Shown here: piece by piece, positions 4,972-31,786 of the stretch
How the letters are laid out: each line of letters begins with the position of its first letter
Position numbering within the stretch: the first letter of the stretch is position 1
Assembly (NCBI RefSeq): GCF_007748075.1
Contig: NZ_CP036280.1
Span: 2,400,001 to 2,432,000 of the forward strand
Origin: Mucisphaera calidilacus
GTDB lineage: Bacteria > Planctomycetota > Phycisphaerae > Phycisphaerales > Phycisphaeraceae
Length of the DNA stretch: 32,000 nucleotides
Direction of reading: 5' to 3'
Notes under the pieces: generated by a model
What the model was told of the DNA's origin: nothing
What the model saw: only the letters and a program-made list of their open reading frames with translations
The model's database searches: none
Translations under genes and position numbers: made by a program

Positions 4972-5069
4972 CACAACACACACAAAACCGAATCACCGAC
5001 TCAACCCATCCTCGCCACGCGTCAGGGTATCCTCTCCGCTTTCCCAATCCACGCCCTGACCCCGAGACC

Positions 5070-14189: not shown

Positions 14190-15373
14190 CAGCAGCACCC
14201 GTCCGGACCGCAGCACGAGTCCGCTTCCGTCGTCACGTCGTAGTCCGCACCCTTCGTCTCACGCGGGTGACGCAACGCCCGACGCGAACAGTCATACAAC
14301 TCCGCCTCCTCCAGCGGGATCTCGTGAACCGGATCGATCCCGATCACCTGAACGCCATAAGGCCCGTGCTCGTTCGTCATCAAACGATACGTCTTGTCGC
14401 ACACCGCCACACGCTCCCCGCGACGGAACACGTGACCATCATCATCACGCACCTCACGCCACGGACCCTTGTAAACCACCGCCTGCTTCCGCTCCAGACA
14501 AACACCCTGCTTGCCCTTGTGCGCCACCACCGTCATCGCACGGAACTCAACCCCCTCGATCGTCTGCCACGGCTCCCCGCTACGCTCCAGGATCTCGATC
14601 CCGTAAAAACCCGCGTCCGCAAAACGCCGGAGAAAATCACCCTCCACAAACGCGCCCGACACACAGCCCGACCACAGCTTCGGATCATTCATGATCGACT
14701 CGGTAGGCGGCTCATCACACACGATGTCCGAAATCACCGCACGCCCGCCCACACGCAGCACACGAAAGATCTCGTCGAACAGCTTCGCCTTCTCTTCCGG
14801 CTTCACGAGATTCAGCACGCAGTTCGACACCACCACGTCCACCGACTCCGTCTCGATCATCGGCTCCTCGCGACGCAGCCGGTCGCACGCCGCCTCGAAC
14901 GCCGCCAGATCCTCAACACTCGAAACCGCACCCCCCGCCAGCACCGCCTGAGCCTTGTCCAGATCCAACGCCAGGTCCTGAATCCGCCCCTTCACAAACC
15001 GCGTGTTCGCGTACCCCAGCTTCTCCGCCATCTCCGCCTGATACTTCCGCGCCAGCCCCAGCATCGCGTCATTGAAATCCACGCCGATCACCCGGCCGTC
15101 CGCACCCACCTCACGCGCCATCAGGTAGCACGCCTTGCCACCCCCCGAACCCAGATCCACCACCGACTCGCCACGCTTCACGTAACGCGTCGGATCACCA
15201 CACCCGTAATCCTTCTCGATGATCTCCGCGGGCAACAGCTTCAACCGCTCCGGGTCATACGTCGTCGCACAGCAAAGCGACGACTCGCACGCCGCCGCAC
15301 CCTCCGCGTAACGCTCCCGGACCTCACGCTCAACGTCATATCCCGACGACCGACCAACCGTGCCACTGCTCAT
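14189..15373 (-). CDS. arsM: Arsenite S-adenosylmethionine methyltransferase
   Basis: SAM motif VVDLGSGGGKACYLMA. The conserved ArsM cysteine contexts are present (SSLCCATTYD, DYGCGDP, SNCVLNLV, WSGCVSGA), as is a Cys-rich C-terminus CCGPDGCC. ATG 15373 was chosen; the ORF-track start at 15397 is a GTG. Confidence 0.8.
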   Translation of the reverse strand: MSSGTVGRSSGYDVEREVRERYAEGAAACESSLCCATTYDPERLKLLPAEIIEKDYGCGDPTRYVKRGESVVDLGSGGGKACYLMAREVGADGRVIGVDFNDAMLGLARKYQAEMAEKLGYANTRFVKGRIQDLALDLDKAQAVLAGGAVSSVEDLAAFEAACDRLRREEPMIETESVDVVVSNCVLNLVKPEEKAKLFDEIFRVLRVGGRAVISDIVCDEPPTESIMNDPKLWSGCVSGAFVEGDFLRRFADAGFYGIEILERSGEPWQTIEGVEFRAMTVVAHKGKQGVCLERKQAVVYKGPWREVRDDDGHVFRRGERVAVCDKTYRLMTNEHGPYGVQVIGIDPVHEIPLEEAELYDCSRRALRHPRETKGADYDVTTEADSCCGPDGCC

Positions 15374-15456
15374 GCTCTTCGTTCCCTTGACGCACACAAA
15401 AGTACCGGGCTCCCCACAAGTCTAGCCAACCACCAACACCCCCGGAATGTTCCGTT

Positions 15457-16299
15457 TTATTCACACACTTTCGCCGAGCCCTGCCACGCCGACACCCGCT
15501 CCCACACCCACGCCCCCACCAGCCCGCCCAGCAACGGCCCCACCGTATAAACCCAGAACCCCCCTCTCGGCCCGGGAAACGCCGTCTCACCCCAGCCCGC
15601 CACAAACGCCACCGCCCTCGGCCCCAGATCCCGCGCCGGGTTCAAACCCGCCTGCGTCAGCGGAGCCACCAGACAGACGATCGCCGCCACCGTGAAACCC
15701 ACCGCCCACGGCACACCCGACGCCGCCGGCACACACGCCGCATGACGCTCACGCGTGTCCGTCAGACAAAACACCATCCCCACCAGCAACGCCGTCCCCA
15801 CCAGCTCCGCCAGCAACGCACCCCACACCGAAACCAGCCCCCAGCGATCCACCCAGCCCGCCGAACCCTCCGGATTCGGGAAATACATCCCGTACATGCT
15901 CGCCGTCGCCGCCCCACCCGCCGACGATGGGTCAATCCCCGCCGACGCATGAAACGCCTCGATCATCCCCCCGTACATCACGTTCAACAGCCACGCCGCC
16001 AAAGCCGCACCCGCCAGCTGCGCCGCCACGTACCCCGGCACCTTCGCCCACGAAAAACCACGCCACACCGCGAACGCCACCGTCACCGCGGGATTCAGAT
16101 GCGCCCCCGATACCGCCGCCGACACATAAATCCCGAACGTCACCGCCAGACCCCACACCGCCGCCACCTGCCACAAACCCGACATCGCCCCCGTCAGCAC
16201 CGCCGCATGAACCGCCCCCAAACCAAACAACACCAGCACAAACGTGCCCAGCACCTCCCCCAACAACGCCGCGCGATAGTCCGGTTGACCGTCAGCCAT
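15457..16299 (-). CDS. MIP-family aquaglyceroporin (likely arsenite/metalloid channel)
   Basis: Two NPA boxes (HLNPAVTVAF and GLNPARDLGPR) and six predicted TM helices. It lies directly upstream of arsM on the same strand. Confidence 0.85.
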   Translation of the reverse strand: MADGQPDYRAALLGEVLGTFVLVLFGLGAVHAAVLTGAMSGLWQVAAVWGLAVTFGIYVSAAVSGAHLNPAVTVAFAVWRGFSWAKVPGYVAAQLAGAALAAWLLNVMYGGMIEAFHASAGIDPSSAGGAATASMYGMYFPNPEGSAGWVDRWGLVSVWGALLAELVGTALLVGMVFCLTDTRERHAACVPAASGVPWAVGFTVAAIVCLVAPLTQAGLNPARDLGPRAVAFVAGWGETAFPGPRGGFWVYTVGPLLGGLVGAWVWERVSAWQGSAKVCE

Positions 16300-16388: not shown

Positions 16389-17402
16389 TCAATCCTTGTC
16401 CAGATCCACCGGGTCCAACCAGGGCATCATCGCGCGAAGCTCCTTACCGACCTTCTCCACGCCATGCCCCTTGTTCTCCTCACGCTGCTTCTTGAACCAC
16501 GGGAAGCCCTTGGCGTAGTCGTCTCGGAACGCCTTGGCAAAACCGCCATCCTGAATGTGCTTGAGCGCCGCAGCCATACGCTGCTTCGTCGCGTCATCGC
16601 AGATCTTCGGACCGGTGTAATAATCACCGAACTCCGCCGTGTTCGAAATCGAGTAACGCATGTAGTCCAGACCACCACGCTTGATCAGATTAATGATCAG
16701 CTCCAGCTCGTGGCAGACCTCAAAGTACGCCAGCTCAGGCGGATAACCCGCCTCGGTCAGCACCTCGAAACCCTTCTTGATCGACTCGCTCAGACCGCCG
16801 CACAACACCACCTGCTCGCCGAACAGGTCCGTCTCGCACTCGTCCTTGAAACTCGTCACCAGAATGCCGCCCTTGCCCCCGCCAACGCCGATCGCCCACG
16901 CCATCGCCTTCTCACGCGCCGTGCCGCTCGCGTCCTGATGAATCGCCATCAGGCAAGGCACACCGCCACCCTTCTCAAACTCCCAACGCACCGTGTGACC
17001 CGGACCCTTCGGCGCCACCATCACCACGTCCACGTCCGCAGGCGGAGCGATCGTCTTGAAGTGCACGTTGAACCCGTGCGTGAACCCGAGCGTCATCCCC
17101 GCCGTCAGATTCGGCGCAATCGACTGCTCGTAAACATCAGGCTGAACCTCGTCAGGCAGCGTCAGAATCACCATGTCCGCCGCCTTCACCGCCTCGTCAA
17201 CCGCCATCGGCTCGAAACCATGCTCCGACGCCAGCTTGCCGTTCGCCGAGTCCTTCCGGTTCGCCACAATCACCTTCACGCCCGAGTCACGAAGGTTCTG
17301 CGCGTGCGCGTGACCCTGCGAGCCGTAGCCCAGCACCGCCACCGTCTTGCCCGAAAGCCCGTCCAGCGAGCCATCTTTGTCGTAAAGCGTCTCGATCGCC
17401 AT
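16389..17402 (-). CDS. ilvC: Ketol-acid reductoisomerase
   Basis: MAIETLYDKDGSLDGLSGKTVAVLGYGSQGHAHAQNLRDSGVKVIV is the class I KARI N-terminus. The C-terminal knot-domain motifs are also present. The ATG at 17402 removes a 32-aa Arg/Cys-rich extension from the ORF-track start. Confidence 0.95.
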   Translation of the reverse strand: MAIETLYDKDGSLDGLSGKTVAVLGYGSQGHAHAQNLRDSGVKVIVANRKDSANGKLASEHGFEPMAVDEAVKAADMVILTLPDEVQPDVYEQSIAPNLTAGMTLGFTHGFNVHFKTIAPPADVDVVMVAPKGPGHTVRWEFEKGGGVPCLMAIHQDASGTAREKAMAWAIGVGGGKGGILVTSFKDECETDLFGEQVVLCGGLSESIKKGFEVLTEAGYPPELAYFEVCHELELIINLIKRGGLDYMRYSISNTAEFGDYYTGPKICDDATKQRMAAALKHIQDGGFAKAFRDDYAKGFPWFKKQREENKGHGVEKVGKELRAMMPWLDPVDLDKD

Positions 17403-17639
17403 CGCGATCTCCCTTGCACTTAAAAGGTCCATGATCCGCCGGCAGCACCCGCGCCGCCGACTCAGCCGAGCCACATAAGCTATCCCCCCCACAAACACCG
17501 GTCAAAAACCACCGATCCCTCCCCCCATCTCGCCCCGCGAAACCTCACCCAACGACACCGCCACCCCGCCTGCCCTAATCTCTACCCCAACGCCAACCAC
17601 CGGACCGCCGACACGCTCCACCTCCACGGAGTTCAACCC

Positions 17640-18740
17640 ATGCCCGCACCAACACAACGATTCACCCTGGGCGGACAACGCATCCCTCGCGGCACCACCC
17701 GCGACATCCGACTCAAAGTCAGCGAACGCTACACAGGCGACGCCATCACACTCCCCATCCGCGTCATCCGTGGACGAAAACCCGGCCCCACCCTCTTCGT
17801 CTCCGCCGCCGTCCATGGCGAAGAGCTCAACGGCGTAGGCGTCATCCACCAGCTCATGTTCGACACCCCCCTCCCCCTCAACGCCGGAACCCTCATCCTC
17901 ATCCCCGTCGTCAACATCTTCGGCTTCGAAAACCAGAGCCGCTACATGCCCGACCGACGCGACCTCAACCGAAGCTTCCCCGGAAAACCCAACGGCAGCC
18001 TCGCCAGCCGGATCGCTCACCAGGTCTTCCAGGAAATCATCACCAAATCCGACTACGGCATCGACCTCCACACCGCCGCAGGCTCACGCACCAACTTCCC
18101 CAACGTCCGAGGCGACCTCAACGTCACCAAAGTCCGACGATTCGCTCGCGCCTTCGGTTGCGAACTCATGGTCCACGGCAGAGGACCCGAAGGCAGTCTA
18201 CGACGCGAAGCCGTCAAGGCCGGCTGCGCCGTCATCACCATCGAAGCAGGCGAACCCCTCAAAATCGAACCACGCGTCCTCGAAGCAGGCGTCCGAGGCG
18301 TACGAAACTGCCTCATCCACCTCGACATGATGACAGGCAAACCCGTCGATCCCCCCTACCAGGTCCGAATCGACCGATCCACATGGATCCGGGCCGAGGT
18401 CGGCGGCATCCTCCGTTTCCACGTCGCGCCAGGCGAAGTCGTCGAAACCGGACAGGCCATCGCCACCAACGTCAGCGTCTATGGCGAAGCCCAAAACATC
18501 CTCCACGCTCCCGCGGCCGGCATCGTCCTCGGCATGACCACACTCCCCACCGTCAAACCAGGCGAACCCGTCTGCCACCTCGCCATACCCAAAGGCGCCA
18601 CCAAAACACTCCAACGCATCTTCGCCTCCAAACAACACAAAAACTACCAGCAGATCCAGAAAGACCTCGCCACCAACGTCACCGTCAGCGAACAGGAACT
18701 CGACGTCCCCAACCTCCCCCAAGACGACGACAACACCTGA
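17640..18740 (+). CDS. Succinylglutamate desuccinylase/aspartoacylase (AstE/AspA) family zinc hydrolase
   Basis: The zinc-ligand context VSAAVHGEELNG is followed by DLNRSFPG and GIDLHT blocks typical of the M14-like AstE/AspA family. Confidence 0.8.
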   Translation: MPAPTQRFTLGGQRIPRGTTRDIRLKVSERYTGDAITLPIRVIRGRKPGPTLFVSAAVHGEELNGVGVIHQLMFDTPLPLNAGTLILIPVVNIFGFENQSRYMPDRRDLNRSFPGKPNGSLASRIAHQVFQEIITKSDYGIDLHTAAGSRTNFPNVRGDLNVTKVRRFARAFGCELMVHGRGPEGSLRREAVKAGCAVITIEAGEPLKIEPRVLEAGVRGVRNCLIHLDMMTGKPVDPPYQVRIDRSTWIRAEVGGILRFHVAPGEVVETGQAIATNVSVYGEAQNILHAPAAGIVLGMTTLPTVKPGEPVCHLAIPKGATKTLQRIFASKQHKNYQQIQKDLATNVTVSEQELDVPNLPQDDDNT

Positions 18741-18777
18741 CCTGACACCAGATGCTAAACCCCCGCCTCCCCGAATC

Positions 18778-20355
18778 TCAGTCATCCATCTCAACGATCG
18801 ACAACGACCACCCGGGAAGCTCCACCACGGCCGACGACCCCAACCAACCCGAAGCAACCGTCTTACGCTCAGGCGTCATCGGACCCTGCTCCCAGACCGA
18901 CAGCTCGGGATGATCCAGACGCACACGCGCCGTCGGCTCGATCGCCTCCTCCGCAAAGTACGTCGTCACCGTCGCCGCCTTCAAACCCTCAACACGCACC
19001 GACACCGGATCAACCCCGCGGTTCATGATCACCAGCGTCCGACCATCACCACGCCCCATCGCCGCACCATAAAGCGCCGAAACACGCTCCACGTCCTCGA
19101 TCGAAATCCCCAGATCGCCACCCCCCTCGAACACCAGCGGGTGCATCGTCTCGTGCTCCTTCGCAAGATGAGCAAGGTGCGCAAACAACTGGCCCACGCA
19201 CGACAGGTCCGCCTCCGTCTCCGAAATGTGACGACCAAGCCCCCAGCCAAGGTCCATGTTGCTGATGCTGTGATGGTTCAGAATCCCCACCGCATCAGGA
19301 CGCGACAAACCCGTCAACCAGTAAGAAGCCTGGTAAAAAGCACTCCAGGGCGTGTCCTTGGTCGCGTCCATCCACCGGTCCGAGACGCTCTCACCCGGAC
19401 GGTAGTAACCGATCACGTTGTACTCGGTGATCCACATCGGCAACCCGCCATAACGCTCCTCGATCAGGCGCGCAGCACGCTCAAGAGTCACCTGCGGGAA
19501 CGCCAGAAAAGCCGCACCACGAGCCTCATCCGTCTCATACGGATCAAGCCGGCTCTGCTGCATCACGTAGTGGTGCAGAATGATCGCGTCGACGTGCTCG
19601 TCCATGCGATCAGCCAGAACGTGCTCGTTCCAGTGCTCGAAACGCGCGTCGCCGCTCTTCTCCTGCTCCTTGGAATCATGCGCGACAAAATAATCGTCCT
19701 CACGCACAACGATGCCGATCTCGACATCCGGATAGAGCGCGCGAAGCCTCGGAGCCAACGCTACAACACGATCCGAGTACCGCCGGCCCGACTCAGCGTC
19801 AATGCCAAACTCGTTGCTCCAGAAGTAAGTCTCGTTGTCCATCTCGACATACTTCACGTCAACGCCGCGATCCTTGAGCATCCGGAACATCGCCAGCTGC
19901 GTGTCCGCACGCGTCGTGAGATTCGGAACCCACTGAGCCGCCATACCCGTCGCCGCCGTGAAGTCCGCAAAGTGGGCAGGACCCAGCAAACCCTGAGGCA
20001 ACTTCGCAACCGGGCCAACCAGCTGCAACATCCAGTTGCCTCCGTCCGCCGCCCAGATCCGGGTGATCTCGGGCACCGGCACGTAACGCGCCGTCTCCCA
20101 ATCCCAGAACGACGCCGTGCTGCCGCCGGGATAACGCATCGACGTAATCCCCAGTCCACGAACCAACGACCGGAACGCCTCGTTCGCCGGAAGGTTCTCA
20201 ACCGTGCAAACCGTGTTGTTCGCCGCGAACACACCCGGATTCATCGGGGCCCCCTCACCCACCAACACCCGCGTCTCCGACGACGACCGATGAACGCAAG
20301 CCGGAACCAGCAAGACCAACAACACGAGCAGCAACGAAGCCTGACGGTGACGCAT
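18778..20355 (-). CDS. Secreted/lipoprotein glycoside hydrolase, clan GH-A (beta/alpha)8-like
   Basis: Signal peptide with lipobox-like LLVPAC. MRYPGGSTASFWDWE near the N-terminus. A candidate acid/base Glu lies in VEMDNETYFW and a candidate nucleophile Glu in PMWITEYNV. The exact GH family was not determined. Confidence 0.6.
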   Translation of the reverse strand: MRHRQASLLLVLLVLLVPACVHRSSSETRVLVGEGAPMNPGVFAANNTVCTVENLPANEAFRSLVRGLGITSMRYPGGSTASFWDWETARYVPVPEITRIWAADGGNWMLQLVGPVAKLPQGLLGPAHFADFTAATGMAAQWVPNLTTRADTQLAMFRMLKDRGVDVKYVEMDNETYFWSNEFGIDAESGRRYSDRVVALAPRLRALYPDVEIGIVVREDDYFVAHDSKEQEKSGDARFEHWNEHVLADRMDEHVDAIILHHYVMQQSRLDPYETDEARGAAFLAFPQVTLERAARLIEERYGGLPMWITEYNVIGYYRPGESVSDRWMDATKDTPWSAFYQASYWLTGLSRPDAVGILNHHSISNMDLGWGLGRHISETEADLSCVGQLFAHLAHLAKEHETMHPLVFEGGGDLGISIEDVERVSALYGAAMGRGDGRTLVIMNRGVDPVSVRVEGLKAATVTTYFAEEAIEPTARVRLDHPELSVWEQGPMTPERKTVASGWLGSSAVVELPGWSLSIVEMDD

Positions 20356-20548
20356 GAGCTAGATCCTTGATCGGATGATTCACAAGAACTGATACAGACA
20401 GACAATCTGCCATAAGTCAATAGCATACCTCCAACAGCTCATGGCCACCACCGTCACCACCCGCCTAAACCGATACTTTCTTTCACCCCCACCCCCGGAT
20501 TCCGGGCCTCGCGCGCACAAGAACGGTCTTTGTGCGCACGTCGTGACC

Positions 20549-20639
20549 AAAAACAGGCCCGTTTTGGACCAAAACGCTCCAAATCGAACGAAAACGAACC
20601 CAAAACGCTCGAAAACGACCCGAAACGAACCCGAAAAAA
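20549..20639. repeat. Helically phased A/T-tract array (degenerate ~10.5-bp repeat)
   Basis: Tracts lie at 20549-53, 20562-65 (T), 20571-74, 20581-83, 20591-94, 20602-05, 20612-15, 20623-25 and 20634-39. The repeating unit is roughly SAAAACGMNCC. Confidence 0.6.
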
Positions 20640-20687
20640 TGTAAATTATTGCAAAGTCGTCAGACTGTGCGCGACCCACCCCGCTCA

Positions 20688-21200
20688 TCAAGGCCAACCG
20701 ATCAGCCACGACACCACCGGCAGGATCGCCCACGCCAGGTAAACCCACTGGATCGCCACCATCAGCCCGTACCACAGCACCAGCAGAATCAACCCCGTGA
20801 TACGACCCGCCGCCGCCTCAGTCTCATCACACAAATACCTGTATACACCGGCGATATAAAACCACAGGTAAGCCGACGCCATCACCGCCGACACCAGCAG
20901 CCAGAACGACGCCAGCCACGCCAGCACCGCAAGCACGACCCAACCCGGCCCCAGCAGCCAGGCAAACCAAGGCGTCAACAACATCATCGCGATCAGCACC
21001 GCCCCCAGCGTCGACCAGTAAAACCACCAGTGCAGCACCGACGCGTTCATCACCGGAACCGCAACCCCAGTCACAGAAGCATCTTGCATCAGATTCAGGT
21101 TGTAGTCCGCCCCGCACTCCGGGCAGTTGCCCCGCAGAGCCAACCCGCGCAGCAGATACCCGCACTGACGACACGCCGGAATCGAACCTTCCTCTGACAT
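20688..21200 (-). CDS. Zinc-ribbon membrane protein, function unknown
   Basis: N-terminal CxxC...CxxC (CRQCGYLLRGLALRGNCPECG) is followed by about four Trp-rich TM helices. Third-position codon bias matches the other minus-strand genes here. Confidence 0.55.
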   Translation of the reverse strand: MSEEGSIPACRQCGYLLRGLALRGNCPECGADYNLNLMQDASVTGVAVPVMNASVLHWWFYWSTLGAVLIAMMLLTPWFAWLLGPGWVVLAVLAWLASFWLLVSAVMASAYLWFYIAGVYRYLCDETEAAAGRITGLILLVLWYGLMVAIQWVYLAWAILPVVSWLIGWP

Positions 21201-21220
21201 AAGCCCGTTATGCTACCGCC

Positions 21221-21661
21221 ATGCGCGACAAGCTCAAGATCCTTTTCCTCTGCACCGGCAACTCCTGCCGCTCCCAGATGGCCGAGGGGTGGACCCGCCA
21301 CCTACAAGGCGACACCCTCGAAGCCTACTCCGCAGGCGTGGTCGCCAAGGGCCTTAACCCCAATGCCATCAAGGTGATGCAGGAAGCGGGCGTCGACATC
21401 ACCAGCCAGCAGTCGCAGACCATGCAGCAGATCATCGACCTCGGCATCGAGCCGGACATCGTCGTCACCGTCTGCCAGCACGCCCACGAGAACTGCCCCG
21501 TCTTCCCCGCCAAAGCACGCATCGTCCACCACGGCTTCGACGACCCGCCCCTCCTCGCGGAGAACGAGCCGGACCCCGAAATCGCGCTCGGCCACTACCG
21601 ACGGGTACGCGACGAGATCAAGGCCTTCGCCCAGGGCCTGCCCGACAACCTCGGAACATAA
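21221..21661 (+). CDS. arsC: Arsenate reductase, LMW-PTP (thioredoxin-coupled) type
   Basis: P-loop ILFLCTGNSCRSQMAEGW (CX5R) plus downstream Cys residues (VTVCQHAHENCP), as expected for the thioredoxin-coupled ArsC family. Confidence 0.9.
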   Translation: MRDKLKILFLCTGNSCRSQMAEGWTRHLQGDTLEAYSAGVVAKGLNPNAIKVMQEAGVDITSQQSQTMQQIIDLGIEPDIVVTVCQHAHENCPVFPAKARIVHHGFDDPPLLAENEPDPEIALGHYRRVRDEIKAFAQGLPDNLGT

Positions 21662-21715
21662 ACCTCTCCCCAACAAATCCTTCCGGCGAATTGATCCGGC
21701 CCAAAACCGGCCCAT

Positions 21716-21760
21716 AAAAAAGGGGCCCCACACGTGCGGAGAGGCGCACAGCAGGGCCCT
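21716..21760 (-). terminator. Two-tier GC hairpin + T6, minus-strand intrinsic terminator
   Basis: Outer stem GGGCCC (21754-59) pairs with GGGCCC (21723-28). Inner stem pairs 21745-49 with 21734-38 around a 6-nt loop. On the minus strand it is followed by TTTTTT (21721->21716). The plus-strand side has no T-run. Confidence 0.6.
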
Positions 21761-22040
21761 GGGTGGTGGGGCTGATTGTGTGAATAGAGTAAATCACAAA
21801 GCCGTGAAACGTCCAGACCCTACCCCCCAGTTTTAGGGGTTTTTCCTGTTTTTTGGGGGATCCCCCCTATCTCTCCATCGTGCTAACTATCCAATTTGCA
21901 ATGATTAACGCGTAATAAGACGTTTTTGATCCCGAAAGCCTCCCCGGCACGTCTCCCCGACCGGAGGAAACCACGTACAGCGCGATTCGTTCATGGAACC
22001 TCGTCGGTTGCGCGAAGAATCACTCCTCGCCCGGCTCATC

Positions 22041-22070
22041 AAAAAACCCCGACGTCGCGCGACGCCGGGG
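22041..22070 (-). terminator. Rho-independent terminator of the spondin-like PEP-CTERM gene
   Basis: The hairpin ccccgacgtc-gcgc-gacgccgggg spans 22047-22070, with one mismatch. On the minus strand it is followed by TTTTTT (22046->22041). It starts 28 nt after the TGA at 22098-22100. Confidence 0.65.
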
Positions 22071-22097
22071 CCGGTGACGAGATTCAGTTTCAAACCA

Positions 22098-22907
22098 TCA
22101 ACGCAGCCGGCGGACCATCGCCAGGCCGAGCAGACCGGTCAGGGCAGCGCTGGCCGGCTCCGGCACGATGGTGATGCGGGCGATCAGGTCGTCCGCCGCA
22201 AAACCTTGACTCACCTGGTAGATGGGGTTCGACGTCCCGACGAGTGAGGTCACGTAAGCGCCCGCGAGGGCGTCATCAAAGAAGGGCGTGACCGGTACGT
22301 CGGTGACGCCGCCGGCGCCGCCGTCCTGGCCGGCGACGAAGGCGGGTCCGTCCGCCGCGTCATTGGCCTCGGTCCCCGCGTCCAGCACCGATCGGCCGTA
22401 GATCAGGATCTCAACCGGGCCCTGGAAGTTGCCCGCCGCGTCAAACAGCTCGATCGCGAAGGGATCATCGTTGCCGACGAACAGGTCGTTGCTGGGGATC
22501 AGCATGGAGGCGTAGCTGAAGTAGCGATTGACCGTGGCGTCGCCGACGCTCAGGGTCAGGGAGTCGGTGTCGCCCGGCGTAAAGACGGGCGGCGCGGTGG
22601 AGGGGCTGGCGACGACGCCATCGACGCCCCCGGCGAGTCCCGCGGCGCTGGCGCCGAAAGCGGCCGAGATCGGGTCGGTCATGCCGAGTTCGGCCAGTTC
22701 CTCGGTGCCGGCGAAGCCGGCGAGGGTCGAGCCGGCGTCGTAGCTGTCGAACCCGCCGTCGTGGGCCGCGACCCAGAAGGGCGTGAACGAGAAACCGCCC
22801 GTCGGCTGGAGATTCTCGACGGTTACCGTGATGTCCTGCCCTTGGGCGGCGGCACCGCTGAGACCCAGAACCGCACCCACCATCATCATTCCTGTCTTAC
22901 GAAGCAT
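22098..22907 (-). CDS. Spondin_N-like domain protein with canonical PEP-CTERM anchor
   Basis: AAGGAGGAG lies 6 nt upstream of the ATG. Signal peptide MLRKTGMMMVGAVLGLSGAAAQG. ITVTVENLQPTGGFSFTPFWVAAHDGGF...ELAELG resembles bacterial spondin-domain proteins; this is from memory and was not searched. C-terminus VPEPASAALTGLLGLAMVRRLR. Confidence 0.7.
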   Translation of the reverse strand: MLRKTGMMMVGAVLGLSGAAAQGQDITVTVENLQPTGGFSFTPFWVAAHDGGFDSYDAGSTLAGFAGTEELAELGMTDPISAAFGASAAGLAGGVDGVVASPSTAPPVFTPGDTDSLTLSVGDATVNRYFSYASMLIPSNDLFVGNDDPFAIELFDAAGNFQGPVEILIYGRSVLDAGTEANDAADGPAFVAGQDGGAGGVTDVPVTPFFDDALAGAYVTSLVGTSNPIYQVSQGFAADDLIARITIVPEPASAALTGLLGLAMVRRLR

Positions 22908-23037
22908 CTTGACTCCTCCTTAGGGGAGATCGCGCGGGATAACTTGCGAGTGTGCCCGCCGCGCACGGACACCTCGTGACGTTTCCGTAGGTTTGAACTT
23001 TCCGTCTTCCCGAGCGGCTCACGCGAGCCGCGATTGT

Positions 23038-23658
23038 TCAGCGATCTCTATCGGTGGGCGCATCGCAGCCGAGGACGCGGAAGATCGCGTCGGCGACTCG
23101 GTCGCAGTAGTGCAGCGCAGGCCCCTGGAGTTTTTCCTCGTTGATCCTTCGCGGGACGTTGAGCATCAGGCCGGTGACCATGGTGACCGCGAGGTCGAGG
23201 TCCATGCCCTCGCAATTGCCCTCGGTCATGCCGTCGGCAAGCAGCCGGCGGAGGAGCCGACCCTGTACGTAATAAATGTCGCCCAGTCGCTCGGCGTAAG
23301 CACGCGGCATGAGCAGGACATAGGTGAAGGCGTCAACGTTGCCGTCGTAGTAGTTGTACGTGAGTTCGACCCAGCGGCGCAGCCGTTGGCGGAAGGGCTG
23401 ATCGGCGTCGACGAGTTCCTGTTTCTCGCGGATCATCTCCAGGACGATGGTCTTGTAGATCTCCTCCCAGAGCGCGGATTTGTTCTGGAAGTGGCGGTAG
23501 AGGGTGGCCTCGGTGACGCCTGCCTCGCGGGTGATGGAGCGGACGGAGGCCTTATCCATGCCGCCATCGCGTGCGAGCCGGAGGGCGGCCTCGGTGAGCG
23601 CGTGCCGGGTTCCGAGCTCATGAACGTCGCCAGTCTCATGTAAACGATCGTTGACCAT
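23038..23658 (-). CDS. TetR/AcrR family transcriptional regulator
   Basis: HTH region ASVRSITREAGVTEATLYRHFQNKSALWEEIY, followed by an all-helical C-terminal ligand domain. Confidence 0.9.
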   Translation of the reverse strand: MVNDRLHETGDVHELGTRHALTEAALRLARDGGMDKASVRSITREAGVTEATLYRHFQNKSALWEEIYKTIVLEMIREKQELVDADQPFRQRLRRWVELTYNYYDGNVDAFTYVLLMPRAYAERLGDIYYVQGRLLRRLLADGMTEGNCEGMDLDLAVTMVTGLMLNVPRRINEEKLQGPALHYCDRVADAIFRVLGCDAPTDRDR

Positions 23659-23663
23659 GCTGT

Positions 23664-23679
23664 GTCAACGCGCGTTGAC
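23664..23679. promoter_or_regulatory. Perfect 16-bp palindrome, candidate TetR operator
   Basis: gtcaacgcgcgttgac lies 6 bp upstream of the TetR ATG. A third copy of the half-site cgttgac sits at 23649-23655, inside codons 2-4. Confidence 0.5.
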
Positions 23680-23807
23680 TTGAGATCATTCCAGATATGC
23701 CGATTTACTTTCCGTTTTCACACAACGCTTACAGAAGGCGTGTCACTGCACAATGAACATCGCTCATCCGTAGTATGATGCTGAATCCCCTTGATACTGA
23801 GCCGGAA

Positions 23808-23881
<74 letters not shown>

Positions 23882-24094
23882 GTGACAGGGCATCGTAACC
23901 CAGAGGGTGGTCGGACGCCACGACGGGGATCGGGGTTCGGTGTCGTGTCCGGATAATGGTCTCCTTTCAAGGCACCGCACCCGTCGCAGCCGGAATTTTC
24001 GCTACGGGCGGCGCAGAGCGGTTAAGTGGGTCATGCGGTGCGTCGATGTCGCTCGTGCCTGCCGGTAAATCCGGCGCAGGCCCGAGGACCGACC

Positions 24095-24757
24095 ATGACC
24101 GTAGCAGACCTCAAACCTCGCCCCGACCACATCGAACCGGCTGTCCCCGTGGGTCGGCTGGACGGACCGGGCCCGGCGTATGAGCTGACCAAGCGTCTGC
24201 TCGACGCGGGTTGTGCTGCCGCGGGGATCCTGGTGCTGTTGCCGCTTCTGCTGGGCTGCGCGTTGTGGATCAAGATGGTAGATCGCGGGCCGATCTTCTA
24301 TTGGCAGTGGCGGGCGGGCCGCAACGGCTGGCTGTTCCGCCTGTGGAAGTTCCGGACGATGTCGCTGAACGCCGAGGACGGCGGGGCGAAGCTGGCGGCG
24401 GCGGGCGATTCCCGGATCCTGCCTGGCTGCCGCTGGATGCGCAAGTCGCACGTGGACGAGTTGCCGCAGCTCTGGAACATCCTCAAGGGTGACATGTCGC
24501 TGGTGGGCCCCCGGCCGGAACGTCCGGAAATCATCGAGCAGCTGCGTGAGGACGTGCCGCACATCGAGTGGCGACTTACCGGACAGCCGGGATTAACGGG
24601 CCTTGCACAGGTCCGAAACGGTTACAGCAACGATCTAAAGGGCATGCGAAGAAAGCTCGCCTTTGACCTGAAGTACCTGCGGAATCGCTCGACGCTGGGC
24701 GACCTGCGACTGATTGCACAGACTCTGCCCCGGTGCTGGGATACCAGCGCCTGCTGA
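24095..24757 (+). CDS. Small (PglC/WbaP-C-like) polyprenyl-phosphate phosphoglycosyl transferase
   Basis: Bacterial sugar transferase signature: KRLLDAGCAAAGILVLLPLLL re-entrant helix, GPIFYWQWRAGRNGWLFRLWKFRTM, DELPQLWNILKGDMSLVGPRP. ATG at 24095; the ORF-track start at 24026 is a GTG. Confidence 0.9.
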   Translation: MTVADLKPRPDHIEPAVPVGRLDGPGPAYELTKRLLDAGCAAAGILVLLPLLLGCALWIKMVDRGPIFYWQWRAGRNGWLFRLWKFRTMSLNAEDGGAKLAAAGDSRILPGCRWMRKSHVDELPQLWNILKGDMSLVGPRPERPEIIEQLREDVPHIEWRLTGQPGLTGLAQVRNGYSNDLKGMRRKLAFDLKYLRNRSTLGDLRLIAQTLPRCWDTSAC

Positions 24758-24779
24758 TGAAGGACCGGAAGTGAGACCC

Positions 24780-25523
24780 ATGATGAGCACAGCACCCCGG
24801 ACCATCACCCTACTCGCGGCGATCGGCCTCCTGGCCCTGACCGGCTGCCAGCCGACCTACACGGACTACGGCGACTTCGTGCAGACGCCCAAGCCTCTGG
24901 TGACGGCGACGGAGTACCGGATGGCGCCGCCGGACTCGATCCACATCGGTTCGAAGCGTGTGCGTGAGATCGACGGGGTGACGCAGCAGATCCGCCCGGA
25001 CGGGATGGTGTCACTGCCGCTGGTGGGCGAGGTGTTCGCGGCGGGCAAGACGCCGATGGAACTCGCCGACGAGATCGAGGCGCACGCGCAGCTCTACTAC
25101 GAGGACGCGGACGTCGCGGTGCGTGTGGTGGATTACCAGAGCAAGAAGATCTATGTCTTCGGCGAGGTGGGTCGTTCGGGCCCGTACTCGTACGACGGCA
25201 CGAACACGGTGTTCCGGACGCTGGCGCTGGCACAGCCCAACCGTCTGGCGAACCCGTCGAAGGTTCAGATTCTTCGCCCGAACCCGGACGGGACGTTCCG
25301 TCGGAAGATGACGATCGACTTCGACAAGATGGTCAAGAGCGGCGACACGTCGCTGGACGCCGTGCTCGAAGAGAACGACGTGATCTACGTGCCGCCGAAC
25401 GCTCTGGCGTCGATCGGCCTGGCGTGCCGCCAGCTGTTGCTGCCGATCCTGCCGATGTCGGAGGTCGTCAACGGCCCGGTCAGCATGCACAACGACCTGC
25501 AGAGTGTGCAGAGCACGCCATAA
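24780..25523 (+). CDS. Polysaccharide export lipoprotein (Wza-like, Poly_export + SLBB; PEP-CTERM-locus type)
   Basis: Lipobox LLALTGC. Poly_export core YRMAPPDSIHIG...IRPDGMVSLPLVGEVFAAGKTPMELADEIE...VVDYQSKKIYVFGEV. SLBB-like tail ending DVIYVPP. Confidence 0.85.
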   Translation: MMSTAPRTITLLAAIGLLALTGCQPTYTDYGDFVQTPKPLVTATEYRMAPPDSIHIGSKRVREIDGVTQQIRPDGMVSLPLVGEVFAAGKTPMELADEIEAHAQLYYEDADVAVRVVDYQSKKIYVFGEVGRSGPYSYDGTNTVFRTLALAQPNRLANPSKVQILRPNPDGTFRRKMTIDFDKMVKSGDTSLDAVLEENDVIYVPPNALASIGLACRQLLLPILPMSEVVNGPVSMHNDLQSVQSTP

Positions 25524-25562
25524 CACGCGCCTGACACAGGGGAGTCCCTGAGGAAGTTCACC

Positions 25563-27221
25563 ATGACACAGCCCAACGAACAACAGACTGCGATCTTCGA
25601 GATGTGGTCGATCGTCTCGCGGTATCGCTGGCGTTTCATCCTGCCGTGCTTCGGCGTGATGGTGGCGGTGATGCTGGTCTGTCTGATGCTCCCGAGGAAG
25701 TATCGCTCGGAGTCGGTCTTCGAGATCCGCACGGACCTGGTGCTCAAGGAGATGACCGCGCGTGGCGCGACGGACGAGTTCCAGGTGCCGCGGAGTTCGG
25801 TGACCGAGGAGTTGTCGGGCGAGGTGGCGATCGACCGCCTGATCCGCAAGATCAAGCCGGAATTGCGTGAGCTGGGCGTGGTGCGATCGTCGTTTGACCT
25901 TCAGCAGTTCCGCCTGAACCTGCTGCGTCGGGTGACGGTTCGCTGGGACCTTGCGAGTCCTCAGCTCGACCGCGTGCGTGTGAGTTACACCGGATCGAAC
26001 CCCGAGGTGACGCGGCTGGTCGTGAACAACCTGGTGTCGGCGTACATTGACCAGACAAACGCGGACATGGATCAGCGTCTGACGGAGTCGGCGGCGTTCT
26101 TCCGCCGCGAGCAGGAGCGTGGCCAGCAAACGATCGAGGCGATCGAGAACCGGATGCTGCGGTTCGAGATCGAGCACGCCGCGTTGCTGCCCGAGAACCC
26201 GCTGAACATCCAGAACCAGCTGCTGGAGAGTCGCCAGGACCTGGACGCGCTGATCGCGGAGCGTGAGACGCACATCGGTCGTCTCGATGCGCTGCACGCG
26301 GTGCTGGACGCCGAGCCCGAGATGCTCGAGGCGGTCGTGATGGGCAACAACCCGGAGCGTGCGGAGGTCGAGGCGCACAAGCGTGAGCTCGAGTCTCAGC
26401 TGAGCACGAACATCAACATCTACCGGATGCGTGAACAGCACCCGGACGTGGTGGCCCTGAAGAATCAGATCGATGCGGCGGCAGAACGGATCAAGGCGAT
26501 CGACCAGCAGGTCGTGACGTCGCGCAACCTGGTCCAGAACCCGCGTCACAACGAGTACACGCTGGCGATCACGCGGGCGGAGGGCGAGTTGGCGTCGGTG
26601 AACGACCGCATCGCCGCGATCCGGATCAGCCTTGATGCGCTGGGCGAGAACTCGGCGAAGCTGTTCCCGGCGCGGAGCGAGTACCGCAAGCTCGAGCGTG
26701 AGCTGGCCGAGGCGCGTGGCGACCTGAGCTTCTGGGAGGCGAACCTCCGCCGGGTCGACCTGGCGTTGGCCGCGGAGAACGGCGACCGGGGCATCCAGCT
26801 GGCGTTCGTGAAGCGAGCGGGTGCGGCATGGAAGCCGGTGTCGCCCGACCTGACGCAGGTGCTGCTCGCGTGCCTGCTGCTCGGGACGCTGTCGGGTTCG
26901 CTGGGCGTCTACCTGGCCTACCGGACGGAGACGGCGTACCACGAGGGTCAGAAACTGGCTTCGGACCTGGGCATCCCGCTGATCGGCACGGTGAGCGAGG
27001 TGATCTCGCGTCAGGACCGCCGTACGCGTCGGATCCGCAACCTCATCCTGTACCCGACCAACGCGGTGGTGATGGCGGCGGTGCTGCTGGGCCTCGCGGG
27101 CGTTCTCTACCTGGATCTCGAGAAGCCTCACGTGTTGTCACTGAGCGGTGACGAGGCGATCGCTCAACCGGAACCGTCCCCGTCCTCGGCCGTCGATGCC
27201 GTGAAGCGTGAGAGAGAGTAA
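25563..27221 (+). CDS. Polysaccharide chain-length determinant (Wzz/GumC-like, PEP-CTERM-locus type)
   Basis: AGGAAG lies 6 nt upstream of the ATG. N-terminal TM segment followed by PRKYRSESVF. A long coiled-coil periplasmic region is followed by C-terminal TM helices (VLLACLLLGTLSGSLGVYLAY). Confidence 0.8.
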   Translation: MTQPNEQQTAIFEMWSIVSRYRWRFILPCFGVMVAVMLVCLMLPRKYRSESVFEIRTDLVLKEMTARGATDEFQVPRSSVTEELSGEVAIDRLIRKIKPELRELGVVRSSFDLQQFRLNLLRRVTVRWDLASPQLDRVRVSYTGSNPEVTRLVVNNLVSAYIDQTNADMDQRLTESAAFFRREQERGQQTIEAIENRMLRFEIEHAALLPENPLNIQNQLLESRQDLDALIAERETHIGRLDALHAVLDAEPEMLEAVVMGNNPERAEVEAHKRELESQLSTNINIYRMREQHPDVVALKNQIDAAAERIKAIDQQVVTSRNLVQNPRHNEYTLAITRAEGELASVNDRIAAIRISLDALGENSAKLFPARSEYRKLERELAEARGDLSFWEANLRRVDLALAAENGDRGIQLAFVKRAGAAWKPVSPDLTQVLLACLLLGTLSGSLGVYLAYRTETAYHEGQKLASDLGIPLIGTVSEVISRQDRRTRRIRNLILYPTNAVVMAAVLLGLAGVLYLDLEKPHVLSLSGDEAIAQPEPSPSSAVDAVKRERE

Positions 27222-27225
27222 GGAC

Positions 27226-28137
27226 ATGTACGAAGAGTTTTTCAGGCTTCGACAGCTGCCGTTCGAGAACACGCCCGACCCTCGCTTCTTCTATGACAGC
27301 GAGCAGCACCGCGAGGCGCTGGCGGCGATCGAGTACACGATCCGCCTGCGCAAGGGCATCGTGCTGGTGACGGGCGAGATCGGCTCGGGCAAGACGACGG
27401 TGGGCCGGAAGATGCTCAGCCGTTGTGGCGACCAGTGCACGGTGGCGCAGATCGTTCACGCGCACAAGGACCGCGCGGACCTGATCGCGCACGTGATCCG
27501 TGCGATCGGCGTGGAGCCGCCCGAGGGCGCGACACACGCCCGTTTGCTGGAGATTCTGCACGAGGTGCTCATCGAGCACGCTCAGCAGCGTCGGCCGGTG
27601 GTGCTGTTCGTCGACGAGGCCCAGAACCTCTCGGACTCGTCGCTGGAGGAGCTGCGTCTGCTCAGCAACTTCGATACGAACACGGTGAAGCTGCTCCAGC
27701 TGGTGCTCGTGGGTCAGCCCGAGCTGCGTCAGCGGATCGCGGCGCCGCACATGCTGCCGCTGCGCCAGCGGATCGTGCTGGCCAAGCAGCTCAAGGCGAT
27801 GAGCCGAGCGGACACGGGCGCGTACATCGCGCACCGGCTGTGTGCCGCGAGCCTGGACCCCGATCACCCGGTGGTCGACTTCGACGAGCGCGCGGTCAAC
27901 GCGGTGTACGAGAACACGGGCGGGACGCCTCGGCTGATCAACGTAGTGTGTGATAACGCGTTGCTGATGAGCTACGTTCGAGAAACGACCACCGTGACAG
28001 CCGATACGGTTCTTGCCGTGATTGAAGACATGCTGCCTAGCTTTGGTGAACCGGTCGTGCGTCCGGTGAGCAAACGCGGCGAGTGGACGGCTCCAAGAAT
28101 GGGGACACGATCGTGGGATACATCTTTGACGCTCTGA
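27226..28137 (+). CDS. ExeA/GspA-like AAA ATPase (PEP-CTERM-locus putative secretion ATPase type)
   Basis: N-terminus MYEEFFRLRQLPFENTPDPRFFY. Walker A GEIGSGKTT and Walker B/DEAQ box LFVDEAQNL. LVLVGQPEL block. The start lies 4 nt after the upstream TAA, with AAGGA upstream. Confidence 0.85.
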   Translation: MYEEFFRLRQLPFENTPDPRFFYDSEQHREALAAIEYTIRLRKGIVLVTGEIGSGKTTVGRKMLSRCGDQCTVAQIVHAHKDRADLIAHVIRAIGVEPPEGATHARLLEILHEVLIEHAQQRRPVVLFVDEAQNLSDSSLEELRLLSNFDTNTVKLLQLVLVGQPELRQRIAAPHMLPLRQRIVLAKQLKAMSRADTGAYIAHRLCAASLDPDHPVVDFDERAVNAVYENTGGTPRLINVVCDNALLMSYVRETTTVTADTVLAVIEDMLPSFGEPVVRPVSKRGEWTAPRMGTRSWDTSLTL

Positions 28138-29108
28138 AGCGCTCTGGACAGGACGGCGCGAAGCGGTCGGAGCAGGCTCCCCCCGCGGCGTCGGCCCCGA
28201 GCGAGCCTGTCGCCCCGACACCGGCAGCGGACGGCCCCTCGACGGAGGCGTCGCCCGGACCGTTTGCTGCGTTGCTCAGTGATCAGGACCTGACCGAGGG
28301 CCTGGACGGCGGATCGGGCTACGCGTCCGACGTGTCGGCCGAGGAGGCTTCGTTCGGCCCGATCGGCGTGATCGGGCAGGAGCACACGTCCGGCTCGTCC
28401 GCGTTTGACGACCGGATGGTGGTGGCGACCAACCCGGGTGCCCGTGCGGCGGAGGAATACCGCCTGATCCGGACGTCGCTGCTGGCGCGTTGGGAGCAGA
28501 AGCGCAACCTGGTGCACACCGTGACGAGCGCGATGCCCAAGGAGGGCAAGACGATCACCAGCCTGAATCTCGGGCTGAGCCTCGCCGAGCTGAGCGAGCG
28601 TTCGACGATCGTGATCGAGGCGGACCTGCGTCTGCCGTCGTTCGAGTCGATGCTGAACGTGGGCGCGACGGCGGGGCTTCTGGCCTGCCTGCGTGGCGAG
28701 TCGTCGCTGGAGAACGCGATCGTGCGTGTTCCGGGGACAAGCCTGAGCGTGATCACGGCAGGCGGGCGAGCCGGGCGTCAGGCGGTGGGCCTGATCGGCT
28801 CGGAGAAGATGAAGATGCTGCTGGGTCAGCTCCGATCGCGTTTTGACCACGTGATTATTGATACGCCGCCGGTGCTGGACCTCGCGGACGCGGGGATCCT
28901 GGGCGGGATCAGCGACGAGGTGTTGATGGTGGCGCGGATGCGTCACACGCCTGGCCCGCTGATCGAGCAGGCGGTGCGTGTCCTGCAGAGTTATCACACG
29001 CCGATCGGCGGCCTGATCGCGACGGATCAGGAGGCGGCGGTGGGCAGCTACCAGTATGCCTACGCGTATCGCTACCGGTACACCGAGCAGCTTCGCGAGG
29101 CGGCCTGA
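28113..29108 (+). CDS. BY-kinase-type P-loop tyrosine autokinase (CpsD/CapB-like)
   Basis: Walker A' context VTSAMPKEGKTITSLNLG. The DxD/Walker B region is VIIDTPPVLDLADA. C-terminal Tyr cluster YQYAYAYRYRY. GTG 28113 gives MGYIFDALKRS, typical of family N-termini. An alternative GTG lies at 28083. The gene overlaps the ExeA-like gene. Confidence 0.85.
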   Translation: MGYIFDALKRSGQDGAKRSEQAPPAASAPSEPVAPTPAADGPSTEASPGPFAALLSDQDLTEGLDGGSGYASDVSAEEASFGPIGVIGQEHTSGSSAFDDRMVVATNPGARAAEEYRLIRTSLLARWEQKRNLVHTVTSAMPKEGKTITSLNLGLSLAELSERSTIVIEADLRLPSFESMLNVGATAGLLACLRGESSLENAIVRVPGTSLSVITAGGRAGRQAVGLIGSEKMKMLLGQLRSRFDHVIIDTPPVLDLADAGILGGISDEVLMVARMRHTPGPLIEQAVRVLQSYHTPIGGLIATDQEAAVGSYQYAYAYRYRYTEQLREAA

Positions 29109-29134
29109 GCCCGTCGTGACTGAGGAATGGACGT

Positions 29135-29785: not shown

Positions 29786-29814
29786 TGCGGCGTCGGCAGG
29801 TATCATGAGGGCGT

Positions 29815-30522: not shown

Positions 30523-30526
30523 CGTG

Positions 30527-31780: not shown

Positions 31781-31786
31781 GGGGCT

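Follow-up and report, generated by a model that had tools for sequence, protein, structure and literature searches.

This study concerns a 32,000-nucleotide stretch (hereafter the window) of the chromosome of Mucisphaera calidilacus Pan265 (Phycisphaeraceae, Planctomycetota), and in particular the 436-bp spacer at positions 21662–22097, at which the strand-compositional bias of the surrounding DNA changes sign. The record, CP036280, is a closed chromosome of 3,486,541 bp from an isolate (PMC8882080). The spacer is a true intergenic gap, the longest non-coding stretch of the window, and is bounded by two convergent 3' ends, namely the stop of arsC (plus strand, ending at 21661) and the stop of a PEP-CTERM protein gene (minus strand, ending at 22098). 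The features on which the analysis draws are as follows, where GC3 skew denotes the GC skew at third codon positions, read on the plus strand unless stated otherwise.

1–21661: left regime, plus strand C/A-rich for either gene orientation (GC skew −0.288, AT skew +0.261)
16389–17498, minus strand: ilvC, ketol-acid reductoisomerase, annotated at 337 aa (Pfam KARI_N/KARI_C; 100% identity to the M. calidilacus protein)
17499–22097: M. calidilacus-specific segment, holding an AstE-like gene, a 525-aa unknown, a 170-aa zinc-ribbon protein, arsC and the spacer
21221–21661, plus strand: arsC, low-molecular-weight phosphatase type, last gene of the left regime (Pfam LMWPc; GC3 skew −0.44)
21662–22097: the spacer, 436 bp, site of the sign change
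21726–21741, minus strand: hairpin of terminator type, then a T-run; no annotated gene lies upstream
21871–21930: most A+T-rich 60 bases of the window (37% G+C)
22045–22072, minus strand: intrinsic terminator of the PEP-CTERM gene (12-bp stem with 8 G-C pairs, then a T-run)
22098–22907, minus strand: PEP-CTERM protein gene, first gene of the right regime (from its translation; C-terminus VPEPASAALTGLLGLAMVRRLR; GC3 skew +0.32)
23038–23658, minus strand: TetR regulator gene, right regime (Pfam TetR_N; GC3 skew +0.37)
23808–23881, minus strand: tRNA-Arg(TCG), at the same place in Mucisphaera sp.
24026–32000, plus strand: PEP-CTERM/exosortase-type exopolysaccharide (EPS) cluster of eight genes, then the PhoH N-terminus from 31787 (Pfam)

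Strand composition on either side of the spacer

The bias in this window is one of keto (G+T) against amino (C+A) bases; it is independent of gene orientation, is present in intergenic DNA as well as in genes, and changes sign with the polarity of a replication origin. The initial annotation had described the plus strand as C/A-rich on the left and G/T-rich on the right, and all elements of that description were reproduced. In bulk, the left-regime values listed above give way to a GC skew of −0.119 and an AT skew of +0.078 in the spacer, and to +0.110 and −0.014, respectively, over 22098–32000. For individual genes, the GC3 skew is −0.58 ± 0.13 on the left (range −0.81 to −0.33, n = 17) and +0.27 ± 0.12 on the right (range +0.13 to +0.46, n = 10), with mirrored third-position AT (AT3) skews of +0.75 and −0.29, and the two GC3 ranges do not overlap (Welch t, p = 7e-14; Mann–Whitney, p = 2e-5). 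On the left, a plus-strand gene has third-position counts of C297/G69/A78/T10 and a minus-strand gene has G294/C67/T91/A4; since plus-strand genes thus prefer C over G by a wide margin and minus-strand genes the reverse, it is the strand and not the direction of transcription that sets codon choice. Intergenic DNA taken alone follows the same pattern, with GC/AT skews of −0.348/+0.335 on the left and +0.046/−0.07 on the right. The hand counts over the first 60 codons given in the initial annotation also proved exact, both left of the spacer (MCP gene, C43 G8 A9 T0; ilvC, G34 C18 T7 A1) and right of it (chain-length gene, G32 C20 T5 A3; PEP-CTERM gene, there called spondin-like, C27 G21 T8 A4).

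The cumulative G−C minimum within the window falls at 22,122; inside the spacer, 21662–21754 is still C/A-rich (GC/AT skew −0.21/+0.46) and the remainder is near neutral. The genes of the 17.5–22.1 kb segment are already at full left-regime skew (−0.37 to −0.81), and the right end of this segment is the switch. The flip is asymmetric: its left edge is sharp, whereas the GC3 skew on the right climbs from about 0 to about +0.5 across 10 kb, with values of +0.16, +0.13, +0.22, +0.16, +0.22, +0.41, +0.22 and +0.46 in EPS gene order and +0.52 in PhoH. In 1-kb windows the GC skew is between −0.16 and −0.42 left of the spacer and between +0.03 and +0.25 right of it. A single left-hand patch, at 7.5–9.5 kb, departs from this through a protein-composition effect: the Gly codons of a 792-aa protein raise G at codon positions 1 and 2 and thereby turn the local skew positive, with third positions at C462/G95. 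This protein (7606–9984, plus strand) has no Pfam match, and carries long GGxGG glycine repeats and a PEP-CTERM-like C-terminal anchor (IPAPGSLAMLGIGALLGSRRQR).

The amplitude on the left is extreme, with 5-kb windows at −0.32 to −0.35, whereas a reference set of 347 5-kb windows from 81 unrelated loci has a median of 0.033 and does not exceed 0.244; against a typical skew of about 2.5% in SkewDB, it is about ten times the usual value. We note that strand bias is extreme in the Phycisphaeraceae more widely, with bulk GC skews of +0.49 to +0.51 and GC3 skews of up to 0.88, taking as examples Poriferisphaera corsica KS4 (L086, CP036425.1 2545862–2566866), Poriferisphaera sp. WC338 (L082, 10–21 kb; record CP194516.1) and positions 1–21661 of the window. 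Third positions at these loci are nearly free of A or of T, and the shift extends to codon positions 1 and 2 and to amino-acid usage; a literature search found no description of this extreme bias in the family. A further observation is that highly expressed genes (ilvC, rpsF, ssb, rplI, fumC and FBA, across all loci) have more C than G at third positions as a property of the gene itself, their skews lying about 0.3–0.6 below those of their neighbors, so that the skew of a single gene near a switch can mislead.

Gene orientation changes at the spacer as well. Nine of the 11 genes on the right lie on the plus strand, as had been proposed, and the "11 of 18" previously given for minus-strand genes on the left becomes 11 of 17 on recounting (12 of 18 with a doubtful open reading frame, ORF), which leaves 20 of 28 genes oriented away from the spacer. 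The doubtful ORF, 131 aa at 20380–20775 (minus strand), overlaps the 170-aa gene, has weak coding statistics (GC3 0.57), and is probably not a gene, as the GenBank protein numbering leaves no room for it. By Pfam, the left-hand genes encode MCP, a 455-aa unknown, Polysacc_synt_2, GNAT, AlgH, an MscS-like channel, the 792-aa glycine-rich protein, TatD, a DUF255 thioredoxin-like protein, an ArsS-like radical SAM protein, an ArsM-like methyltransferase, a MIP channel, ilvC, and the AstE-like, 525-aa, 170-aa zinc-ribbon and arsC products. On the right are the PEP-CTERM gene, TetR, tRNA-Arg, the eight EPS genes (a sugar transferase, Poly_export, a chain-length protein, an AAA_22 ATPase, an AAA_31 kinase-like protein and three unknowns) and the start of phoH, whose N-terminus is encoded by the last 214 bases of the window. 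A 22-nt inverted repeat (TCTCATGTAAACGATCGTTGAC / GTCAACGCGCGTTGACTTGAGA) at 23634–23685 overlaps the TetR start codon and is probably the TetR operator controlling the divergent EPS cluster.

The junction in related genomes

The initial annotation had offered three explanations for the flip: an origin not linked to dnaA, the breakpoint of a large inversion, or a chimeric assembly join. The abruptness of the change on its left side, and the lineage-specific DNA that adjoins it, would be in keeping with either of the last two, or with any other misassembly. However, gene order and orientation across the junction are matched in a second Mucisphaera, assembled independently from long reads (3.25-Mb contig; L081/L088; ERZ26867466, ctg28227), in the shared arrangement ilvC (minus), PEP-CTERM (minus), TetR (minus), tRNA-Arg (minus), eight EPS genes (plus) and PhoH (plus), and this conserved order and orientation rules out a simple inversion breakpoint. 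Moreover, the PEP-CTERM gene is still near ilvC, and therefore no single inversion can end in the gap. A chimeric join is ruled out by the same adjacency, by GenBank protein identifiers that run consecutively across the gap and rise with the coordinate (ilvC, QDU72121; the last complete gene, u418, QDU72135; RplI, QDU72138), and by the identity of both sides as M. calidilacus, since ilvC, the 417-aa EPS-cluster protein and the neighboring L9 each have entries that are 100% identical. The same identifiers show that the order u418-PhoH-HD-rplI is kept in M. calidilacus as in its relatives, and the record is that of a closed isolate genome (PMC8882080). Taken together, a single large inversion breakpoint, misassembly or chimeric join is hardly credible. 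A search of 21.5–24.1 kb for a long inverted repeat or a transposase found neither, although the other end of an inversion would fall beyond the window.

A recently acquired island was likewise rejected, as the EPS block and tRNA-Arg lie at the same place in Mucisphaera sp. and the block has a G+C content of 0.658 versus 0.629. The same block, from EPS to VitK2 and in the same order, is found in a Phycisphaeraceae metagenome-assembled genome (MAG, L090) and in a Mucisphaera-like contig (L093), in neither of which linkage to ilvC was seen. The only lineage-specific part of the junction is the segment at 17.5–22.1 kb, which bears the skew of the left regime and which is replaced in Mucisphaera sp. 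by about 0.7 kb with one unrelated 176-aa gene (no counterpart by tblastn and blastn against L081). A metagenome scan with the 525-aa protein for the home of this insertion in relatives returned two distant short contigs only, and a homologue scan with arsC, which is widely transferred, gave only relatives at up to 64% identity, from other phyla. Arsenic-related genes stand on both sides of ilvC in the window, comprising the ArsS-like radical SAM protein with DUF3641, the ArsM-like methyltransferase and the MIP channel at 13149–16299 (minus) and arsC at 21221–21661 (plus), and variants of such an arsenic island adjoin ilvC in other Phycisphaeraceae (L087, 11178–19289; L082, 13310–14527); these repeated islands suggest that the ilvC neighborhood is a recurrent insertion hotspot.

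Despite the conserved gene order, the flip itself is specific to M. calidilacus. Mucisphaera sp. (L088), L090 and L093 have no flip over the homologous 20–30 kb: in window orientation, their plus strand is C/A-rich from the EPS genes through PhoH, HD, rplI-ssb-rpsF, ispF and NtrC, with a GC3 skew of −0.3 to −0.7 irrespective of gene orientation. The EPS coding strands are thus C-rich in these three relatives and G-rich in M. calidilacus, with differences in coding-strand GC3 skew (M. calidilacus minus relatives) that rise with distance from the gap: +0.45, +0.54, +0.58, +0.51, +0.65, +0.81, +0.67 and +1.00. On this measure, the right block is near neutral at 22–24 kb, about half-way at 24–29 kb, and near full strength at 29–32 kb. 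Read on the plus strand, the minus-strand TetR and PEP-CTERM genes shift in the same direction as the EPS genes (+0.51 and +0.13, respectively), and the shift is therefore a strand effect. First positions shift less than third positions (change in first-position AT skew of −0.03 to −0.27). Such a lag suggests that the move towards the G+T-rich state is fairly recent, but the ratio between first and third positions is similar in the Poriferisphaera pair described below, so that this timing test is noisy and non-equilibrium is not firmly established. From the sequences compared here, the switch position in M. calidilacus would not be ancestral. The G+T-rich strand of the three relatives carries the essential rpsF-ssb-rplI operon and ispF, a placement in support of the usual skew polarity; the amino-acid bias of RplI was considered as a probe of the regime beyond the window in M. 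calidilacus, and was abandoned because there are too few differences.

These orthologue shifts also bear on the idea that the skew is driven by transcription or selection, with transcription-associated deamination in a very highly expressed EPS operon making its coding strand G+T-rich against the replication bias. The eight EPS genes and PhoH all lie on the plus strand, where transcription is confounded with replication, and the growth of the organism as a viscous colloid, as described in PMC8882080, suggests heavy polysaccharide production. However, TetR and the PEP-CTERM gene, both on the minus strand, shift the same way on the plus strand relative to their orthologues, the genes here that are highly expressed (ilvC and the ribosomal protein genes) are biased towards C3 and not G3, and the bias on the left is wholly independent of orientation, making this explanation very improbable.

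In Mucisphaera sp., synteny with M. calidilacus and Poriferisphaera breaks directly downstream of ilvC (L081, 11–21 kb; record 338.6–349 kb). The genes past the break encode an FG-GAP protein, a second PEP-CTERM protein, hydantoinases, ArgJ and FBA, and over them the skew declines to roughly zero, which may reflect either a transition of terminus type or the boundary of a rearrangement.

With ilvC as the anchor gene, we compared its neighborhoods in six genomes. The left side of the window is syntenic with Poriferisphaera over ilvC, ArsM-like, DUF255, TatD, PilZ and Polysacc_synt_2, and in Poriferisphaera sp. WC338 the skew flips immediately upstream of ilvC; relative to that gene the polarity is the same as here, and mnmG (gidA) is 3–5 kb away. 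The GC3 skew in this genome runs from −0.57 in fumC through −0.51, −0.53 (mnmG), −0.30 (zwf) and −0.05 (pgl) to between +0.73 and +0.82 beyond ilvC, where the bulk skew reaches +0.51. P. corsica KS4 has an identical gene order to WC338 and no flip, its GC3 skew being +0.6 to +0.88 throughout; between the two, orthologues in the switched block differ by 0.85–1.35 at third positions and 0.13–0.39 at first positions, compared to about 0 for control genes. In MAG L087, the GC3 skew changes from −0.45 to 0 over 4 kb as a smooth gradient inside secA (1212–5468, 4.3 kb), 5–9 kb upstream of ilvC. No rearrangement breakpoint can yield a smooth gradient within a single essential gene, and this one suggests that the boundary between replication directions is diffuse or in motion. 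MAG L084 has no flip. Origin-polarity switches thus occur at most 10 kb upstream of ilvC in three of the six genomes, are absent in congeners with identical local order, and all have transitional zones of 5–10 kb. Separately, a more distant 2.96-Mb Phycisphaerae MAG (L092, 1–20627; record 962287–982913) shows a flip of the opposite, positive-to-negative (terminus) type, with a transitional zone of about 8 kb centered on the rpsF-ssb-rplI operon.

Direction of replication at the spacer

The G+T-rich strand is generally the leading strand in bacteria, and the pattern of G+T against C+A is ascribed to deamination in whichever strand stays single-stranded at the fork, namely the lagging-strand template. 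G+T-rich leading strands have also been reported in Planctomycetes (PMC4070872), and on this basis the description of the negative-to-positive change as having origin polarity in the initial annotation is correct. With a G+T-rich leading strand and this direction of change, it follows that forks diverge at the gap. Our favored reading, to which we assign a probability of roughly 45%, is therefore that the spacer is the left edge of a fork-divergence (origin-type) zone extending from about 21.7 to 24–29 kb, unlinked to dnaA and mobile in evolution, and such a zone would most likely be the chromosomal origin region. In this scenario, DNA on the left would be copied by a leftward fork, with the minus strand leading, and DNA on the right by a rightward fork, whereas in the three Mucisphaera-like relatives the block from EPS through PhoH to rpsF would be copied in the same direction as ilvC. 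The switch in M. calidilacus lies at the end of the lineage-specific 4.6-kb insertion, and the initiation site would lack a linked dnaA and a canonical DnaA-box cluster and would have been relocated relative to conserved genes, with the composition of the right block part-way to equilibrium near the gap and almost completely adjusted 8–10 kb out.

Several observations are in line with fork divergence. The gap is the longest non-coding stretch of the window and holds its most A+T-rich 60 bases, the genes diverge from it (20 of 28), and the flip is also seen in intergenic DNA. Switches of the same polarity lie near ilvC in WC338 and L087, and the one in WC338 adjoins a syntenic ilvC-ArsM-DUF255-TatD-Polysacc_synt_2 block. 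Across loci that look equilibrated, about 65% of genes lie on the G+T-rich strand by our own tally, which counts for little. Gene-strand bias is in any case weak in Planctomycetes, at 0.50–0.51 (PMC4070872).

Other observations weigh against this reading. The flip is absent from the three Mucisphaera-like relatives and from P. corsica KS4, and therefore an origin would have had to move at least twice among unrearranged genes. A fixed origin should produce a step, rather than the 10-kb climb on the right or the gradient inside secA. The rpsF-ssb-rplI operon of M. calidilacus is kept in place, and would be head-on to replication if the right regime continues. The gene surroundings are accessory (arsenic genes, the EPS cluster and PEP-CTERM proteins) and in this respect more terminus-like. 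Furthermore, no cluster of DnaA boxes (TTATCCACA-like) is present in the gap or in the whole window, where matches with at most one mismatch number four in 32 kb (2.2 expected) and none in the gap, which has a single 9-mer at two mismatches; the search used the canonical TTATCCACA-like consensus, which may not be the Phycisphaerae form. The switch in WC338 likewise lacks a DnaA-box cluster. Repeated 9-mer families sought de novo in the gap did not exceed those in shuffled sequences, and none of dnaA, dnaN, parAB, rpmH, gyrB, mnmG and rsmG is found in the window, confirming for dnaA and dnaN what the initial annotation had stated. As the DnaA-box and dif sequences of Phycisphaerae are not established, these absences are weaker evidence than they would be in Proteobacteria. 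Of the three explanations originally offered, the dnaA-unlinked origin is the one we favor, with no positive origin hallmark.

The only element of the gap that could, on its base composition, pass as an unwinding region is 21871–21930, which at 37% G+C is the lowest in the window (tied with 7431–7500) and is flanked by two terminators; it contains no repeated 13-mers. Other candidates in the gap were examined and set aside. There is no convincing ORF, and no Rfam match even at E ≤ 1, and the predicted fold does not stand out (z = −1.2). Several 8–9-mers occur in collinear order in the gap and in the post-ilvC spacer of WC338, but as a conserved non-coding element this was rejected, since local alignment gave z ≤ 3.2, with no consistent partner and no excess over shuffles. 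A plasmid or integrated-replicon origin in the 4.6-kb insertion was also rejected, the only plasmid matches being AstE homologues on haloarchaeal plasmids, and a motif search of 80 arsC loci for dnaA, parB and mnmG found none. The gap further contains the minus-strand hairpin at 21726–21741, which lies some 300 nt past the terminator that belongs to the PEP-CTERM gene, has no gene in the interval, and could mark the end of an unannotated small transcript, and an inverted repeat, TGTGA-N10-TCACA, at 21779–21798 (TGTGAATAGAGTAAATCACA), resembling a CRP/FNR-type pair of half-sites with unusual spacing.

Much of the evidence that is awkward for an origin would become ordinary if the zone were instead a terminus, where forks converge, in a lineage with inverted skew polarity, whose leading strand would be C+A-rich. 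A polar fork barrier would then explain the sharp left edge, and forks meeting at variable points the climb on the right, the site drifting between relatives with replichore length, which would account for mobility between congeners without rearrangement and for transitional zones of 5–10 kb. The lack of DnaA boxes and dnaA, the accessory genes, the insertion exactly at the switch and the position of the spacer between convergent genes would all fit, and the amplitude of about ten times the SkewDB value of about 2.5% means that the mutational process may itself be unusual. However, we know of no bacterium in which inverted GC-skew polarity has been established, and the keto/amino pattern is that of deamination in a single-stranded lagging-strand template. 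The sign change is opposite to that of a terminus (positive to negative), and G+T-rich leading strands are reported in Planctomycetes (PMC4070872). With inverted polarity, rpsF-ssb-rplI and ispF would be head-on in three relatives, and the genes diverge from the gap. A dif-like site was also not found: compared with dif of E. coli or B. subtilis, the closest sequence has 12 of 28 mismatches and lies outside the gap, with no dif model available for Planctomycetes; dif was not predictable in the single Planctomycetes genome examined by Kono et al. 2011 (PMC3025954). Little can be drawn here from where in its record the WC338 switch lies (at 53.7%). We considered this and the position of ilvC in KS4 (59.6%) for telling origin from terminus, and rejected such record coordinates because the WC338 record probably begins at an arbitrary point: Unicycler, the assembler used, by default rotates the start to dnaA, and this rotation probably did not fire on so divergent a genome. 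On balance, a terminus of inverted polarity is distinctly unlikely.

Only a little less doubtful is the possibility that the composition is a fossil, with no origin present, such that the block right of 22.1 kb is now copied leftward and keeps the skew of an earlier state. This could have arisen through a long inverted period followed by precise re-inversion between repeats, or through allelic replacement of the polysaccharide locus from a relative with the block on the other strand, and polysaccharide loci are hotspots of recombinational replacement. The right block appears off equilibrium, with a GC3 skew of only +0.13 to +0.22 over 24–29 kb and intergenic skew near zero, the same genes are opposite in sign in three relatives, and no origin motifs were found. 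Nevertheless, the conserved order and orientation exclude a single inversion, and precise re-inversion needs flanking inverted repeats, of which none is seen in the window. Third positions are ahead of first positions towards the new state, suggesting, within the limits of this noisy test, movement towards the G+T-rich condition, and the skew strengthens to the right end (PhoH, +0.52) without returning. Finally, imports or inversions would not readily produce the recurrence on the ilvC side in a second genus or the smooth secA gradient in a third genome. We thus consider a fossil composition unlikely, and retain fork divergence as the favored reading.

Every reading needs something unusual. 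We suggest, as a possibility whose odds are clearly below even, that the switch point shifts by 10–25 kb or more between congeneric Phycisphaeraceae with the flanking genes in place (M. calidilacus compared to three relatives; WC338 compared to P. corsica), whether through a relocatable origin without DnaA boxes (here on the 4.6-kb insertion) or a broad initiation zone, or through inverted polarity with a drifting terminus that a polar fork barrier bounds, and that in both cases a strand bias rivaling the mitochondrial one in strength goes with it.

Known systems and implications

Among well-characterized replication landmarks, E. coli oriC lies between gidA/mnmG and mioC, about 40 kb from dnaA. 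The spacer resembles such a dnaA-unlinked origin in that a negative-to-positive switch falls in an intergenic spacer from which genes diverge and near which neither dnaA nor dnaN is found, and the switch in WC338 lies 3–5 kb from mnmG. Unlike oriC, however, the gap has no DnaA-box cluster, repeated motif or clear unwinding element, and it separates convergent gene ends; its position differs among congeners of the same gene order, and one of its sides is a 10-kb climb. It shares with terminus/dif regions a variable accessory content, an insertion at the switch, a labile position, transitional zones and convergent genes, but has the opposite polarity under the rule of a G+T-rich leading strand, and no dif-like site was found.

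Turning to amplitude, SkewDB lists about 250 chromosomes in which one strand has three or more times the skew of the other, without explanation (PMC8941118). The two sides of the switch here similarly differ about two-fold; in contrast to those chromosomes, the asymmetry is local, as the right side nears its full value within 10 kb, and the orthologues point to history rather than to a permanent difference between replichores. As regards composition, the closest likeness is to the heavy and light strands of vertebrate mitochondrial DNA, which show a strong keto/amino asymmetry. There, as here, this bias sets codon choice, with third-position GC skews of about 0.6–0.8 and AT skews of about 0.8–0.9 in the present case. 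The likeness is in composition alone, since this is a 3.5 Mb bacterial chromosome with two regimes of opposite sign, but a bias of mitochondrial strength hints at unusually long single-strandedness during replication.

Bacterial origins are usually among the most fixed landmarks of a chromosome, and are recognized by DnaA boxes beside dnaA. In the Phycisphaeraceae, a sign change of origin polarity and very large amplitude, without an origin motif, lies at different places among the same genes in sister species of two genera. The resulting dominance of strand identity over codon usage (GC3 skew 0.6–0.8) affects gene finding, codon-based estimates of expression, the detection of horizontal transfer, and binning. 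If forks diverge at these switches, the family would provide examples in nature of origins that relocate or of initiation by a non-canonical route; if they converge, it would be an exception to the rule of a G-rich leading strand.

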